Shown: piece after piece, positions 8,400-53,898 of the stretch | Numbering within the stretch: the stretch's first letter is position 1 | Layout: the number at the start of each line of letters is the position of its first letter | Origin: Eledone cirrhosa | Taxonomy: Eukaryota | Length of the DNA: 64,000 bases | Reading direction: 5' to 3' | Assembly (NCBI GenBank): GCA_964016885.1 | Contig: OZ024743.1 | Location: 273,606,001 to 273,670,000 of the forward strand | The notes under the pieces: generated by a model | What the model was told of the DNA's origin: nothing | Seen by the model: the letters and a program-made list of their open reading frames with translations, nothing else | Databases searched by the model: none | Made by a program: the position numbers and the translations under genes

Positions 8400-8481
8400 C
8401 TGCATACTAAGGTTTTGGTGGTACAACCAACATATACTCAAAATCTCTCTCTATATATAAATATATAAATATATATATATA

Positions 8482-8829
8482 TGTAAGCTATCGCCGTATT
8501 TTGACTAAAGAAATTAAAGAAATTATTTAGCCTCATAGTGGGGTTAGGAACCCTCGGAGAAATGGAAAAAGATGAGTATTGGCGTACATGGGAGTCGAAC
8601 CCACATCTTTAGTTATCCAGACCACTGTGCTACCATTTACACCAACACATCACCGTGGTCAATACACCAACACATCACCGTACGTCAATACTCATCTTTT
8701 TCCATTTCTCCGAGGATTCTTAACCCCACTATCAGGCTAAATAATTTCTTTAATTTCTTCAGTCAAAATACGGCGTTAGCTTACATTTATAATAATTTCA
8801 AACCCGCTCGGTGTTTCGAAAAATAGTCT

Positions 8830-8832
<3 letters not shown>
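8482..8832 (-). mobile_element. tRNA-headed small element with inverted duplication, in (TA)n
   Basis: Minus strand 8575-8655 reads TGGTGTAAATGG..GTGGGTTCGACTCCCAT followed by TTTTT. Arms 8482-8586 and 8680-8786 are inverted repeats. Confidence 0.75.
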
Positions 8833-8887
<55 letters not shown>

Positions 8888-10280: not shown

Positions 10281-10621
10281 ATTAGAAATAGAATAGCTTT
10301 CACCGTATTTTTTTAACTAAAGAAATTTTAGTCTGATAATGAGGTTTAGAACTCTCAGATAAATGGAAAAAGATAAGTATTGATGTACATGGGAGTCGAA
10401 CCCACATCTTTGGATATCCACACCCCTGTGCTACATTTACACCAACACATTACCCCTCTCTCTCCATTCAAATTAGAAGCTAAATTCTTAGCGAGTATAA
10501 ATTACAAGTAAGTATGTTTTGGAACAGTGAGCAGGTTTGAATTTAGAAATAGAATAGCTTTCACCATATTTATTTTACTAAAGAAATTTTAGTCTGATAA
10601 TGGGGTTTAGAACCCTCAGAT
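10281..10621 (-). mobile_element. tRNA-headed small element, ~261-nt unit in partial tandem
   Basis: TTAGAAATAGAATAGCTTTCACC is repeated at 10282 and 10543; same tRNA-like head as 8482-8832. Confidence 0.75.
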
Positions 10622-10774
10622 AACACAGTTAATGCAAGAGGATAGTTTGTTAGTCAGATGTAGTAGTTAGCGTATGCGTTAGTTACACGTGGGGCATGCA
10701 AGTGTGTCCCATTTATATATGATTATTGTGTGGCAGGGTGTTACATGTAATACAAGCACTTTAAGCGTGAATTC

Positions 10775-10816: not shown

Positions 10817-11017
10817 GAAGGAAATGTGGTAAGGAACCAGGTGGACCATAACGCACCAAAGTACTCAATACTTAGGGTAGTAGAGTGGGTAATAGGAACA
10901 AGTAAGACCCCGAAGGCTGAGCACAAGCCGTTTCGACGGCTAATTCTGGACTGAATCATTCAGTCCAGAATTAGCCGTCAAAACGGCTTGAGCACAGCAA
11001 TCGGGGTCTTACTTGTT

Positions 11018-11021
<4 letters not shown>
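10812..11021. mobile_element. Fold-back mini-element with 3' half of a hammerhead, in (TA)n
   Basis: Palindrome 10892-11021 centred on GACTGAATCATTCAGTC; minus arm has GAAA-CGGCT..AGCC-TTC-GGGG. A related fragment lies at 36232-36296. Confidence 0.65.
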
Positions 11022-15475: not shown

Positions 15476-15561
<86 letters not shown>

Positions 15562-15781
15562 TTATTAAAACAACAGATTAAAGTTTAATCAAAGAATCGC
15601 TGCTTTCACTCTTAACGGCATCTTCTGGAAGATCCCGTTAAGGGTGAAAGCAGCGATTCTTTGCTTAAACTTTAATCTGTTGTTTTAATAAATGTTTGCT
15701 CTACGGTTCTTATATATTTGATATATATCTATCCTTATCGAGCCCTCTTTGGATTTTAGTCTTCAAATTTATTATTATTAC

Positions 15782-16149: not shown

Positions 16150-16596
<447 letters not shown>

Positions 16597-18088: not shown

Positions 18089-18481
<393 letters not shown>

Positions 18482-23069: not shown

Positions 23070-23407
23070 ATAATATAAGATCAAAAGATAGTTAAATGAG
23101 TTCCAAGTATTTTATTATGCGCATTTCAAAAACAAATATCATCATGAGATGATATTTGCGTTTTCATCACATAAAATAGGGATACATGATATGAAGGTTA
23201 AAATACACTTGTGAATAGTGAAGTTTTAAATCAACATATGTTGATATGTTGATTTAAAACTTCACTATTCACATGTGTTTTATAACCTTCATATCATGTA
23301 TCCTTATGTTATCTGATGAAAACGCAAATATCATCTCATGATGATATTTGTTTTTGATATGCACTTAATAAAATACTTGGAACTCTTTTAACCATCTTCT
23401 GATCTTT

Positions 23408-23412
<5 letters not shown>
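23070..23412. mobile_element. Fold-back element with a hammerhead in each arm
   Basis: About 170-bp arms. Consensus TTAT-CTGATGA-long stem II-GAAA-TGCGCA-TA-ATAA (23112-23174 minus, 23309-23371 plus); each arm has a different core mutation. Confidence 0.8.
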
Positions 23413-24954: not shown

Positions 24955-24968
24955 ATAATTAAGTTAAA

Positions 24969-25783
<815 letters not shown>

Positions 25784-26294: not shown

Positions 26295-26503
26295 TGGTCT
26301 GGATAACCAAAGATGTGGGTTCGACTCACATGTACGGCAACACTCATCTTTTTCCATTTCTCCGAGGGTTATAAACCCCACTATCAGGCTAAAAATTTCT
26401 TTAGTCTAAAATACGGTGAAAGCTTAAAATTTCTAATTTCTAATTTCAAACACGCGCACCGTTTCAAAAACATACTTACATGTTTACGTTTATAATTTGC
26501 TTG
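26295..26503 (+). mobile_element. tRNA-headed small element (5'-truncated) fused to the PLE pLTR
   Basis: TGGTCTGGATAACCAAAGATGTGGGTTCGACTC..CATCTTTTTCC matches the 8482 and 10281 elements. Confidence 0.8.
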
Positions 26504-26526
26504 TATATATATATATATATATATAC

Positions 26527-26596
<70 letters not shown>

Positions 26597-26942: not shown

Positions 26943-27367
26943 TATTAATTCAAAATATTAACAAAATAGATATTCTTGTGATCAAGTATATTTTATTATA
27001 CATATTTCAGAGGTACTGAGTTAACTTCAACAGTACGTCCTCATCAGATAAAATAACATGATGCATGACATACCCTGACATAGTAGATGGTTAAGACTGA
27101 ATTAATGACTGAATCTTAACCATCTACTATGTCAGGGTATGTCATGCATGCATCATTTTATTTTATCTGATGAGGACGTACTGTTGAAGTTAACTCAGTA
27201 CCTCTGAAATATGTATAATAAAATATACTTGATCACAAGAATATCTATTTTGTTAATATTTTTAATTAATATTAATAACTCCGGAAAACCAAACTTGTTG
27301 AGTGCTTCCAATCTAAATGTAAAATTCATTCTTTGATTTATACATTGAACCTTGTTTAACCTTTAAA
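26943..27367. mobile_element. Fold-back pLTR-like element with an intact hammerhead in both arms
   Basis: TTTTAT-CTGATGA-GGACGTACTG..CAGTACCTCT-GAAA-TATGTA-TA-ATAAAA at 27161-27223 (+), mirrored near 26990-27050 (-). Confidence 0.85.
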
Positions 27368-34286: not shown

Positions 34287-34703
34287 TAAAAAGAAAAAAA
34301 GATGAAATCGAAAATGCGACTGGAGTCTTATTTTAAAAAAATATGTATATTTATTTGGTTCCTTTACCGGTTTCGCAGTTCTTCTGCTTTACAAAAGTAG
34401 AGTTGAGATGGAGGGCCTGTGGTTTTTCTCACATCTACTTCTCTAAAAACCTGGCGGTTCGAGCCACATTTTCCATATAAAACAAGTAACATTCAAAGAC
34501 CAACCAGATGGGGGAAAAACCACAGACCCTGCATCTCAACTCTACTTTTGAAAAGCAGAAGAACTGCGAAACCGGTAAAGGAACCAAATAATTTTTTTTT
34601 TTAAATAAGACGCCAGTTGCATTTTCGATTTCATCTTTTTTTCTTTATACTTTCACTCGTGTAGGACACCTCGGTTATTTTTCATTTTGTAAAAATATCT
34701 CAC

Positions 34704-35784: not shown

Positions 35785-36187
35785 ACATCTACCAAGAGTT
35801 TACGGTAGTGTCCAATCCGTATGAAGAACTCAATGTAATCCGGATATCATGGAAAGAAGAGATGCATTCAAAAATCACTTTCGGTGAAAGATAAACGGAA
35901 TACAGAGTCAAGATAAAGTATTAAAAAAATAATGAATAAAACAATGAAACAGTTCCTTATATTAAACAAAAAAAGTTCATTATTTAACGATCGTTTCTAG
36001 GACATATATGTGTTAGAATTGGCATGCATATTCATGCCAATTCTAACACATATATGCATATTCATGCATATGCATGCCAATTCTAACACATATATGTCCT
36101 AGAAACGATCGTTAAATAATGAACTTTTTTTGTTTAATATAAGGAACTGTTTCATTGTTTTATTCATTATTTTTTTATTTTTTTAAT

Positions 36188-36977: not shown

Positions 36978-36981
<4 letters not shown>

Positions 36982-38654
36982 AAAGTTAAACAAGGTTCAA
37001 TGAATAAATCTAAGAATGAGTTTTACAATAAATTGGAAGCACTCAAATGAGAGGGTTTTCCAGAGTTATTAATATTAATCCAAAATATTAACAAAATAGA
37101 TATTCTTGTGATTAAGTATATTTTATTATACATATTTCAGAGGTACTGAGTTAACTTCAACAGTACGTCCTCATCAAATAAAATAAGATGATGCATGAAA
37201 TACCCTGACATAGTATATGGTTAGGATTCAGTCATGTAGTGATTAATATATGACAAAACTCAATATTTATATACCTTAATATTGAGAACATGAGAAAAAT
37301 ATATAATACGTACAATAGAGAGGGTGCCTGGAATACAGTTAAAACAATACATGGCATAATACACAATATAACTGTTAAAAAAATTTAAATTACTGAAGAA
37401 AGAGGAAAGAAAGGAAAGCATAGAAAAAGAAACAGCTGATGGGATAATATAGTTAGTAGGTGCCTCGAAAGACTAAAGAGAGATGATTAAAGAGAGAGAG
37501 AGACAAAGGGGAATAATTTATTTTCAAGTTTATATACAATTATCCATATATACAATATATATCTAAACTTATTTGGTTGACCGTTAATATTCAAAATATT
37601 TAATTTAAGTTAGTTCAGAGTAATGAATAATATTTTAGGTTTTAAAAGTTAATAGGTATCTGTATTAATATTATAGTATACTATGAAGTTTAATATCTAA
37701 AATTCAAATTTTATGAAATCAAATTTAAAGGAGTTACAAACACGAGAAAGAAAATATAATGTTTTTATAATCTCACGAAGGTAAACTTTACCAAAATGAT
37801 TTATAATATTGACAACAGTTTATATAATATAATTTATAAAATAATTACAGTTATAATTATTAATGAATGTATGATAAACAATTTGAGTGCCTAAAGGATC
37901 AACAGGCCTTATAATTAAAATTAAAGAAGTCTGAATTTTAAATTACATATATGTGTTAATCAAAAAATATACAAGGATTATATTGTCTAAAGATTTAAGG
38001 TGATACCTTTCAAATATACATAACAAAATAAAATAATACAATATAATAAATAAGTTACTGAAAATATTGTTAAAAATATATTGTTAAAAATTAATGTTTT
38101 ATATCAATTATTGTAAAAGGATCATTTAGTTCATATATATTATAAATATATAAGTCAAAACTAGATGAGTCCTAAGGGCTAGAGACATAATAAATATAAA
38201 AATAAAAACTGAAAAATAAGGAATTGATGCGAAACTTAAAAATGCCCAATATTAAAAATATAGTTTAAAATGTAATAGCGTTTTAATATATAGTAGACAA
38301 AAGATACTTCTAAAATATCTAGCGAATGTGATAGAAAGATGAGCTAAGGACTTGAAAAAGCCGAAGGTAATCTAAATTTAATTAAAATAAATTAAATTAT
38401 ATTAAATTAAGTAATAATCATCATATAATTTCGAACATCCAGGGAATATCTAACACTTATAACAATAGAGAGTCATTTGAGTATCTAAATTATTTATAAA
38501 TGTAACTACGAGTATGTTATTACACTAGATAAACATATTTGTACAACTATATAGAGAGAGTATTATAGGTATTAATGAAACGATATACATTTAATAAATA
38601 AATAATTATAATCATTATTAGTAATGCTATAATTGTAGTTTTACCTCCAGTTCA

Positions 38655-38745: not shown

Positions 38746-38822
38746 TAAGAGGAATTCCAACTTTGTCTGATTTACTCGTTTTATTTACAATCCTTTAAAA
38801 TTTATAATGGTATTATAATGAA

Positions 38823-39053
38823 ATAGTATGATAGAATATTAAATGTTAAGTGTTAATTGAACAAGTACTTTCATGCTTTCGCAATCTTCAGGTTCACAAT
38901 GTGTGGTGACAGTCATGTTTGCAATTTTCAACTGTTTTCCACAGTTGAAAATTGCAAACATGACTGTCACCACACATTATGAACCTGAAGATTGCGAAAG
39001 CATGAAAGTACTTGTTCAATTAACACTTAACATTTAATATTCTATCATACTAG
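38823..39053. mobile_element. Near-perfect fold-back with canonical minimal hammerhead in each arm (38980-39018 on +)
   Basis: TGAAC-CTGAAGA-tTGC gaaa GCAt-GAAA-GTAC-TT-GTTCA. Confidence 0.85.
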
Positions 39054-40205
39054 TTATATATATTCATACATTCGCCAATTCATACTATATTCATACTATA
39101 TATATATTCATACATTCACCAATCAGTATCCGACCTGGTTTCAAATCGTATGTATTGCACATCGTTCTTTCTCTCTGTGATGTGAACTAGCATTGTTGCT
39201 CTTTTACTGCTCAGACAAAAAGTTTTGATAAGTGCCCATGGACCAGGTAGCAGTGTTTTAAACAGCGTGATCTGAATAAAGACTGCAAAGAGACGTTGGA
39301 AATTTAACAATGCATTTCTTTCGATACTTTAACTGTTCCCACAATTTCTCACGGTGTGCAATTTAATTTATCTATCTGGAAACGATGAAAAGCAAAGGTG
39401 ACCTAGTTGAGGTCTGAACTCAAAGAGAGGAAACACATACCGCCAGCCCTTTTGTTCTAACCTCTAACAACTCAGCCACAATTTGCATTTGTATGTATTA
39501 TCCAGTAATTATTGTAGTAATTTTTTAAATGGCAGTGAATAGGAAAAAGCCTCTATGATAAAGTTCTATATTTACTAATTTTTCCTCATGCGTCATTCAG
39601 AAAATAAAATGTGGCAATGCTGATATTTTCAGGGCTTCTAATACTCTGGAGAGAAAGGGATACTAAGAGAACCTTATATTTAGATAGAAGGCGCAGATTA
39701 TTTTAATAGAGTTACTAAACCCACCAACGAACGGGAGGTGATATTAAACCAGGTGAAGGTTATAACTGTTCGTTAATTAGCGAGATCGACCGTCCATTCG
39801 ATGGATTATCAAATATCACTCACAAGTTTTAGGTCGGCCGTAGGGTACGGAAGAATACTCCAGGCTAGATTAGAGACACATTGACCCTAAACGACAGGAG
39901 AAATACTATTAATCATAGGTCTGCTCGATCAAGCATGTCTTGGATTTAAACAACAAAAATAAGAAAATCACATTTATTTGAAATATGATGGTATTTGGGT
40001 ATTTGACTTTTCGCTATTTTATTGAATTATTCTCGTTCAATTTGGCTTCGTATGTATGTTCAGATGTTTCTATTAATTAATCATTTACTTCGTGTATTTG
40101 AATTCATTGATGATACACTGTAATTGGTGGTCAATGGTGCTGAGAAAGTAGTTACTTTTCAGGCAGCCGAATCATTGAAAAGAAACATAGTTATCGTGTG
40201 TATGT

Positions 40206-47010: not shown

Positions 47011-47161
47011 TTTCTCCTTTGAGGGCATGAAAATGCACATGGTGCACAGGAACGTCACTTCTTACATATGTGCATAAGCATACTCTTTAACATTTCCAGG
47101 AAACTCTACTAAAATACACTATTTTGTAAATTGACAGAATATATATATATATATATATATA

Positions 47162-49244
<2,083 letters not shown>

Positions 49245-52726: not shown

Positions 52727-53484
52727 TTACGGCTTAATTCGGGATGTTTGTTTACAAACACACTGAGCATTATAATAAATGTACGTACATATATATATGT
52801 GTGCATGTATGTATGTATATATATATATAAAAAAAAACATGAGAAGAAAGAAGAATACTGCGTGGTTGCACATGGGTTACATGTGACAAAAATAGTCCTT
52901 CGTCAGTGATTTTCCAACCATCATTGGTATTTCATCGCATTAAAAATCATATACCTCAGGTTGGTGCGAGCAATAACTAAAAAAAGTTACTGGGACCAGT
53001 AAATCGCGTAAAGCGAGGGGGACAAGTGAACAACATAGAAGGATAAAAGCAAACCAAAGAAAGGAAAATATATATACATACTACTGTACGTCTGTATACA
53101 TGTATGTATGTACGTATACATACTTATATTTAATAACAGACGTACAAAGAGTGAGAAATTAAATTTCGTTTCATTTTTTCCGTTTATCGTTTTCGGTACC
53201 CCGGCCGATTAATTCATTCGATATGCAAATTAGGCTGCTATGCCGTTAATATGCATAAGGAAAGTATATACTTTCAGACGTTCAACCATCTGGTATACGT
53301 TGCTGACGATAGCTAATGAGCTTTAAACTAGTACAGCGTTCCTTTGTCAGTGTTGAACAAATGAGCAACGATGGATGCTAAACACTGTACGGCTTAATTC
53401 GGGATGTTTGTTTACAAACACACCGAGCATTATAATAAATGTTCGGTGAATCCATACGTACATACATATATGTGTGCATGTATG

Positions 53485-53544
<60 letters not shown>

Positions 53545-53652
53545 GTACTGTACGTCTGTATACATGTATGTATATATGTACGTATACATACTTATATTTA
53601 AGTAACAGCCGTACTAAGAGTGAGAAATGAAATTTCGTTTCATTTTTTCCGT
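52727..53652 (+). mobile_element. 445-nt retrozyme family, diverged tandem copy, interrupted by a family D insertion (52829-53070)
   Basis: Hammerhead 53297-53339 ACGTTG-CTGACGA..TAAA-CTAG-TA-CAGCGT (G12 mutated). Confidence 0.8.
52895..52996 (-). ncRNA. Candidate permuted hammerhead, copy 3 (divergent subfamily)
   Basis: GGUAU-A-UGAUUUU..UGCGAU-GAA-AUACC..GGUUGG-AAAAUCA-CUGACGA-A-GGAC; hairpin CAGUAACU/AGUUAUUG. Confidence 0.7.
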
Positions 53653-53898
53653 TTAATTTGATTGATTATAAATGAAATTATTGCTGTCACGTGAACAAGT
53701 TCATTAAATTTCGCGCGCGTATTTGGGAATTTATTTTGTAGCCTTTTAGAAAATGTTATGACAAGCAAAAGAATGGTCAAGAGAAATTGATGGGAGAATT
53801 GTCTGGTTCAGTGAATATGGCTAGTTCGCTGGTGTGTCCGAGTTCAGATGTTCTATTGAAATAAAGAAAGTAGACATATGTATGCTTATTTGTGTGTT

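Follow-up and report, generated by a model that had tools for sequence, protein, structure and literature searches.

The window, a 64,000-nt stretch of the Eledone cirrhosa genome (contig OZ024743.1, positions 273,606,001 to 273,670,000), contains three related copies of a non-coding repeat of 260–290 nt that sits in TA microsatellites. The host genome is large (3.0 Gb), AT-rich and rich in microsatellites. Sequence comparison shows the copies to be 75–86% alike pairwise, and each lies where the original prediction had placed it, beside a (TA)n tract as it had also said. Every copy represents a different one of three subfamilies present in the genome: A, with a unit of 290 nt (copy 3), B, with a unit of 271 nt (copy 1), and C, with a unit of 260 nt (copy 2). 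The unit length first proposed, about 261 nt, fits the subfamily of copy 2 and falls short of those of copies 1 and 3. Unit positions are numbered hereafter from G1 of the tRNA-like head.

Copy 1 consists of two arms in opposite orientation. The inverted arm (8483–8654, minus strand) reaches from unit position 2, at the putative Pol III start, to ~175, where its outer end lies at the second (short) RT start site; it is 97% identical to the B column majority. The main arm (8680–8832, plus strand; 94% identity to the same majority) covers unit positions 69–220, from a pile-up of 5′ ends in the T-stem that is described below to the main RT start site. Both types of stop are seen in copy 1, at position 2 in the inverted arm and at position 69 in the main arm. 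The junction of this inverted copy had been put at the tRNA 5′ end, which is right for the arm that ends at position 2, whereas the other arm starts at the 3′ foot of the T-stem. Between the arms lies a 25-nt junction (8655–8679) that includes a short repeat of the head's reverse complement, and a 25-nt period spans 8638–8691. A (TA)n target remnant adjoins the copy on the right (8833–8865), and the left side is TA-rich at 8453–8482.

The inverted arm carries a tRNA-like module (8580–8651, minus strand) that scores 35.7 bits with Rfam RF00005 (gathering threshold 29) and is also called by ARAGORN (8579–8652), confirming the tRNA-like head that had been noticed here; modules of other family copies score up to 50.2 bits in Rfam. 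It has an A box (8633–8644), a B box (8591–8601) and the anticodon GGA, and in folding predictions its D- and T-stems are intact, its anticodon stem is weak and a 7-bp acceptor is possible in the subfamily. Close behind the head, again as predicted, is a TTTTT run (8566–8570, minus strand), the sole run of four or more T in the B unit. This T5 run is conserved in the family, and in an RNA that crosses the unit junction it is predicted to pair with the spacer's GGAAAAAGA.

Copy 2 (10281–10623, minus strand; 92% identity) is the partial tandem that had been noted, with a length of 1.3 units: it runs from position 94 through the spacer and the head (G1 at ~10455) to position 174, the short RT start, and then into (TA)n. 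Copy 3 (26295–26503, plus strand; 98% identity) is 5′-truncated at position 31 and ends at the main RT start, next to a (TA)n remnant (26504–26534) on its right. It keeps the T-arm (26315–26331) and lacks the A box and the D-arm, whereas a head with A box and T-arm had been ascribed to all three copies.

The head departs from a functional tRNA gene in several respects: the anticodon stem has 3–4 bp, a U follows the anticodon, the GGA anticodon comes without the matching long variable arm, and the acceptor of subfamily A is broken at two pairs. Within the part of the tRNA set that was compared for a parent, tRNA-Gln genes match the head at 45–49 of 71 positions and a tRNA-Ala-like repeat at 45–48 of 71; the D-arm of the head is one base off that of the tRNA-Gln genes of the same genome. 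Separately, about 29 clustered matches to the tRNA-Gln A-box motif lie at C1:168.21–168.28 Mb, and those checked are tRNA-Gln genes. The genome also holds a separate dispersed element of 1.7 kb that starts at TA, has a short terminal palindrome and contains an internal tRNA-Ala(GGC)-like gene (53–72 bits) with a drifting anticodon.

Exact 25-mer matches in the genome number 961 for subfamily A and 1,290 for subfamily B, and subfamily C has 3,204 first-look candidates; the copy number of the family is therefore in the thousands. Mean identity of copies to their own column majority is 95.5–96.5%. Insertion geometry was read from pattern matches at the top of the listing, which lie on contigs C1 and C2 and gave 80 A loci (from 100 listed of the 961 matches, once same-insertion duplicates and four other places had been set aside) and 88 B loci (out of the first 96 listed of the 1,290 matches). 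Segments of at least 88% identity and 24 nt were counted. The selection motif lay at the main 3′ site, yet copies could run past it, and the second 3′ site was unselected.

Across these loci, the 3′ ends fall at two sites, 239–248 and 160–186 in A and 219–227 and 162–187 in B, with a spacing of 35–80 nt between the two. The 3′ ends had been described as variable from the window copies; they are fixed, and it is the 5′ ends that vary. Inverted arms are present at 40 of 80 A and 63 of 88 B loci (103/168 in total), and the outer ends of these inverted loci are one main and one second site in 30/40 and 54/63, respectively. Segments longer than one unit occur at 32 of the 168 loci (16 A and 16 B). 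A (TA)3 or longer tract follows 225 of 252 fixed ends, against a background of 11.7%, and 124 of 168 loci have TA on both sides. No poly(A) was recorded in the 168 loci, and clear TSDs were not found among them, the TSD-like matches at five loci being of low complexity.

The signature described for PLEs comprises partial tandems, an inverted truncated copy, a tail and a bias towards (TA)n (PMC8557442), and the account of an Anolis PLE gives two internal RT starts, AT-rich targets and dispensable ribozyme cleavage (PMC11167929). The geometry of the repeat matches both this signature and the two internal RT starts. One measurement counts against the PLE reading: the ‘tail’ of subfamily A is 60–80 nt, and PLE tails are described as 30–40 bp (PMC8557442). 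The original prediction of a PLE-mobilised SINE-like element is thus supported by the two fixed 3′ ends, the (TA)n flanks, the inverted arms and the partial tandems, and also by the lack of poly(A) and clear TSDs at the sampled loci and by autonomous Neptune-type PLEs in the genome.

The window also contains the end of a hammerhead-bearing PLE-type family (26945–27366, with a type I core at 27167 and partners at 36979–37235). This family has the same two-end geometry, with the ribozyme on the strand that has the fixed 3′ end, which checks the orientation used for the tRNA-headed repeat. Long palindromes occur at ten or more other places in the window, often next to (TA)n, and are probably inverted-arm insertions of other PLE-type families (for example, 10895–11019, 15560–15693, 18218–18329, 23073–23410, 34290–34646, 35914–36185 and 38821–39055).

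The repeat might also be an ordinary tRNA SINE mobilised by a LINE, or a satellite that recombination has dispersed; in favour are its tRNA-derived head with A and B boxes and a 276-kb tandem array of subfamily A. The loci themselves make this explanation highly improbable: they have no poly(A) or LINE-type tail, TSDs are almost absent, and the copies are circularly permuted. The original prediction had named a family of mostly monomeric SINEs with TSDs and a LINE-derived tail as the outcome that would overturn it; instead, 103 of 168 loci are inverted. The array, at C28:19,440,624–19,716,546, amounts to ~950 units by length and starts with (TA)n joined to an A box. Among 755 units extracted from the fetched stretches, the mean pairwise difference is 6.7%. 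Nearly all array units carry A122 and T127 in place of the G of dispersed copies, among which the variants common in the array are seldom or never met (47T in 382/755 versus 6/121). We rejected the array as a master on account of these near-fixed differences, which make it a product of the family, derived from one copy, and not the source. The array differences, together with the inverted geometry and the TSD and tail results, already contradict both the LINE and the satellite form of this explanation. Within the array, the B box is intact in 547/755 units, and the D-stem partners G16C and C25G occur together in 220/755; this pair is a single event that could be due to hairpin-templated repair rather than to selection. 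A tandem array of at least ten B-like units lies at C4 ~264.92 Mb.

GIY-YIG candidates in the genome number 10,596, and all 150 that were scored matched. Several autonomous families combine an RT with a C-terminal GIY-YIG domain and a CX4CxxC motif, with ORFs of 938 and 1096 aa, and several of these RT and GIY-YIG families have copies that are ~95–98% identical in protein, that is, they are young Neptune-type PLEs. Comparison of the unit with 40 GIY-YIG loci of the 10,596 candidates gave no significant similarity (best E 0.06) and no pLTR homology. Since none of these 40 loci resembles the unit, the partner PLE is a putative one. One Neptune-type PLE family (the L364 group) has two end sites, separated by ~50 nt, with TA-rich DNA beyond them.

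Rfam searches of tandem copies of A, B and C returned no ribozyme at E up to 5–10, the only matches being tRNA, hairpin-type miRNA models and weak unrelated ones. The miRNA matches were discarded, as they are below gathering and reflect the inverted arms. A search for hammerhead cores on the sense strand with any 3–8 Watson–Crick pair, including the U3–A8 variant mentioned in PMC4209133, found none and recovered its positive control, and a search for an HDV-type P1 partner of starts in the T-stem region was likewise negative; the absence of a hammerhead noted at the outset stands. An antisense CTGATAG...GAAA motif was rejected as a hammerhead: it is without a 3–8 pair and lies on the non-template strand. 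Other parts of the window do contain hammerhead-like sequences. At 25293–25364 there is a Hammerhead HH9 match of 38.9 bits (gathering 52) within a 212-nt direct repeat (24963–25174 and 25429–25640), and a 445-nt tandem repeat with an inverted arm (47154–49133, 16150–16493 and 52728–53655) has a hammerhead-like CTGACGA...GAAAC core on the minus strand and looks like a conventional retrozyme.

The 5′ ends of the copies are most concentrated in the T-stem. A pile-up that runs from the T-stem 3′ strand into the acceptor takes 39/101 A and 43/107 B segments at risk (82/208 pooled), against an expected <3%; 13 further segments are mostly snap-backs at the same place. Sixteen other CATG, 6-bp palindrome or TATA sites draw 0–4 stops each, compared with 35 and 43 at the T-stem, and palindromes or TA microhomology were rejected on these grounds as the sole cause of the pile-up. 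The folded RNA has a predicted pairing probability of 0.69–0.93 at the site, and we infer that the pile-up is a stall of the RT at the G–C pairs of the T-stem.

The pile-up might instead be a true RNA end, produced by a novel ribozyme or by an endonuclease, or the PLE nuclease might make a site-specific resolution cut there, in the role of the hammerhead. Its upstream edge, at tRNA position 63, is sharp and it tapers 3′, like the wall of ends at G1 described below, and the hammerhead-bearing family at 26945–27366 has a comparable pile-up (12/45 ends within 12 nt), ~60–70 nt upstream of its core, at an ACTnCCATG motif like that of the T-stem stop. However, the likeness of this 9-nt motif is based on two families, the ends spread over 6–8 nt, and the ribozyme searches (Rfam at E up to 5–10, hammerhead core, and HDV-type P1 partner for starts near the site) came back empty. 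A stall is the simpler reading of a site made up of T-stem G–C pairs, and a cut there seems to us improbable.

Other 5′ ends fall at the head itself. A set of 60 heads was assembled by exact match at positions 10–75, in two batches of 30; it includes two cases in which both arms of an insertion are represented, and a few of its heads have spacers of the C type. Of these heads, 33 end at −5 to 9 and the other 27 run on into the spacer. The 33 ends comprise 9 at G1 (microhomology allowed), 2 at position 2, 6 at 3, 4 at 4, 1 at G5, 5 at 6, 5 at 7–9 and 1 at −5. From G1, which is preceded by a pyrimidine, it is 4 nt to the RNase P site G5 and 11 nt to the A box; 17 of the 33 ends therefore retain a leader that RNase P would remove, and the 10 at positions 4–6 are compatible with either an RNase P cut at G5 or a promoter. 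In the pattern-picked B set, head ends make up 11/43 where 2.9% would be expected (p = 3e-8); the figure is 9/30 in a mixed set selected with a C head. Head stops in subfamily A number 0/41 in the pattern-picked set and 6/37 in the best-hit set, the former implying that A templates are mostly not monomers begun at a Pol III start.

The remainder of the unit also bears on transcription. The bodies of A and B are T-rich, with 9–10 TTT triplets, yet have no T4 run after T5, against 2.9 and 2.6 in shuffles (P = 0.008 and 0.011); the body of C has one (P = 0.42). T5 had been taken to speak against Pol III use, a view that sits poorly with the depletion of T4 runs from the rest of the unit. Judged from the sequence, the wall at G1 and the T4 depletion favour transcription of the whole unit by Pol III from G1 through a leaky T5. 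The conservation of T5 is unexplained by a pure promoter model, as T5 should curb read-through. Misreading at m1A58 was rejected as a sign of tRNA modification (8/57 changes in A versus 2/57 in B); the excess in A is best explained by alignments that run through snap-back junctions.

Many cDNAs that pass the head continue upstream, ~45% of those of B and nearly all of those of A, and the longest of these junction-spanning copies reach 3.3 units, with one case of 5.4. Overall, roughly half of the copies or more cross the unit junction, so templates that are multimeric or circular exist as well. The units of one insertion have variants in common, a pattern also seen in B: site 223 agrees in 105/108 pairs, and shared non-majority letters amount to 0.7% within an insertion versus 0.13% between loci. 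Head stops are rarer on the second pass (2/31 versus 6.8 expected, P = 0.016, in pooled and partly selected sets). Circular templates would account for the shared variants and the scarcer second-pass stops, and so would read-through multimers of uniform sequence. Some linear read-through is favoured by two C copies that are 1.65 units long and begin at the head.

These observations bear on a different role for the tRNA-like head, in which a read-through transcript is cleaved at its two tRNA modules by RNase P, RNase Z or both, and the released monomer, ligated to a circle, is the main template. The shared variants and rare second-pass stops would suit such circles. In B and C, moreover, the 7-bp acceptor is predicted to sit on a long leader–trailer helix, with a 3-nt bulge at the discriminator and a pair probability of at least 0.99; this helix, of the spacer end and the T5-bearing trailer, is predicted to form only across the unit junction. 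The pairing could also be a relic of an old inversion. Subfamily A has a small excess of ends just past the discriminator, at 75–77 (6/127). The end maps need not reveal cutting: the control hammerhead family has at most 1/45 ends at its own cut site, so processing can be invisible there, and a circle would hide any cut.

The footprints that are visible lie elsewhere. The wall at G1 precedes the RNase P site by 4 nt, and 17 of 33 head ends keep bases upstream of that site, with just one exactly at G5. The main pile-up is upstream of the RNase Z site; its ends retain the acceptor 3′ strand and are therefore not RNase Z products, and only 3/156 B ends lie at 76–79. Subfamily A, in which the acceptor is broken at the two outer pairs, has nevertheless amplified recently and is the subfamily richest in junction-spanning copies; the two 1.65-unit C copies start at the head as linear read-through predicts; and the Rfam mascRNA model scores 20.2 bits against a gathering threshold of 42.5. 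The original prediction of an RNase P/Z signal in place of a ribozyme thus finds no support in the end footprints, and we regard processing of this kind as unlikely. Equally doubtful is its extension to cross-phylum ‘Penelope SINEs’, in which a leaky terminator would place a tRNA mimic at both ends of an RNA that host tRNA enzymes cut and ligate into a circle for rolling-circle copying by a PLE RT. If that were true, host tRNA maturation would stand in for the hammerhead of retrozymes.

We propose that the repeat is a non-coding element of PLE geometry that is probably copied by the RT and GIY-YIG nuclease of a co-resident Neptune-type PLE, its tRNA module probably being an internal Pol III promoter and not a cleavage signal. 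Pol III would start at G1 and read past the single T5 often enough to copy the body, a start site and read-through that are suggested by the 5′ ends and the T4 depletion. The PLE protein would then nick (TA)n and prime internally at two fixed sites, one per target strand, which would yield the main arm and, in inverted orientation, a shorter one; the ends themselves are observed, and the presumed enzymology follows that of the Anolis PLE. Synthesis of cDNA would halt mostly within the T-stem or on reaching the 5′ end of the RNA; the stop positions are observed, and a stall and the template end are their likely causes. Junction-spanning templates, whether read-through multimers or circles, would restore partial tandems in which the spacer is still present 3′ of the RT start. 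The Anolis PLE protein is described as requiring RNA 3′ of its own RT start (PMC11167929), and such a requirement would explain why the spacer is retained.

Several features of this repeat are individually familiar. tRNA-derived SINEs have an A/B-box head, a 5′ end at the Pol III start and a body without T4 runs, together with a LINE tail or poly(A) and TSDs. The repeat shares with them the A/B-box head, 5′ ends at a putative Pol III start and, in A and B, the T4-free body, and differs in having no LINE tail, poly(A) or TSD, in its internal priming, in the terminator-like T5 right behind the head and in its circularly permuted, junction-spanning copies. mascRNA and menRNA are tRNA-like folds within longer RNAs (MALAT1 and NEAT1). 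The repeat likewise has a tRNA-like fold inside a longer RNA, but with a full D-arm and promoter boxes and a score below gathering for the mascRNA model (RF01684, 20.2 versus 42.5 bits); unlike those expected of a mascRNA-type substrate, its DNA 5′ ends do not lie at the RNase P site, although cut sites need not show.

Nearest among known elements are Schistosoma Sm-alpha and the animal retrozymes, both of which carry hammerheads. Sm-alpha is described as having a tRNA-Gln-derived Pol III promoter, a short, often tandem unit and an active hammerhead; for Sm-alpha and Sj-alpha, multimeric transcripts and a need for tandem copies in propagation are also described (PMC6765202, PMC2770079). The present repeat resembles these elements in its short, often tandem unit with a tRNA-type head, which would here too act as a Pol III promoter and which is one D-arm base off tRNA-Gln. 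It differs in that no hammerhead was found and in its PLE-type two-end geometry, which does not figure in the parts of the Sm-alpha descriptions available to us (PMC6765202, PMC2770079). Animal non-LTR retrozymes are described as non-coding units of ~170–400 nt that range from monomers to long arrays, are defined by a type I hammerhead, form highly self-paired circles, co-occur with PLEs and are proposed to be moved by them (PMC7229834; 10.64898/2026.07.22.740005). The size class, the range from monomers to arrays and the PLEs in the same genome are alike here, whereas a tRNA module takes the place of the hammerhead, no pLTR homology was found in the comparison with 40 GIY-YIG loci and the overall predicted folding is weak (circular z −1.2 to −2.2).

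In geometry, the repeat is close to the MRC1-type PLE derivatives of Chlamys and to Naiad and Neptune, for which partial tandems, an inverted 5′-truncated copy, a tail at one end and (TA)n targeting are described (PMC8557442). Tandems, inverted arm, tail and (TA)n are shared, and in neither case is a hammerhead needed. As described, MRC1-type elements resemble their autonomous partner at the 3′ end, in contrast to the repeat, for which no partner homology was found among the 40 loci; and the tRNA-like head has no counterpart in the portions of that account that we draw on, where a tRNA promoter is not mentioned (PMC8557442). A search of the full-text literature found no description of a ribozyme-free, tRNA-promoted PLE passenger, which repeat databases such as Repbase or Dfam may list as a SINE or a satellite. 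To our knowledge, it is the hammerhead that defines the short passengers of PLEs so far described in animals.

In this family, a Pol III promoter of tRNA type and the internal priming typical of PLEs appear to be united in the absence of a recognisable ribozyme, and the new element here is the end-mapping evidence, which speaks for the promoter role and against simple RNase P/Z monomer ends. Repeat annotation may file such elements under tRNA pseudogenes or satellites. With a mapped start, stall and two priming sites, the repeat is a natural template of about 270 nt that could be used to test how a Neptune protein chooses and copies its RNA. SINEs are Pol III parasites of LINEs; if the tRNA serves as a Pol III promoter, this repeat is likely a SINE-like parasite of PLEs. 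Its amplification as a short tandem passenger without a hammerhead bears on what hammerheads do for PLEs.
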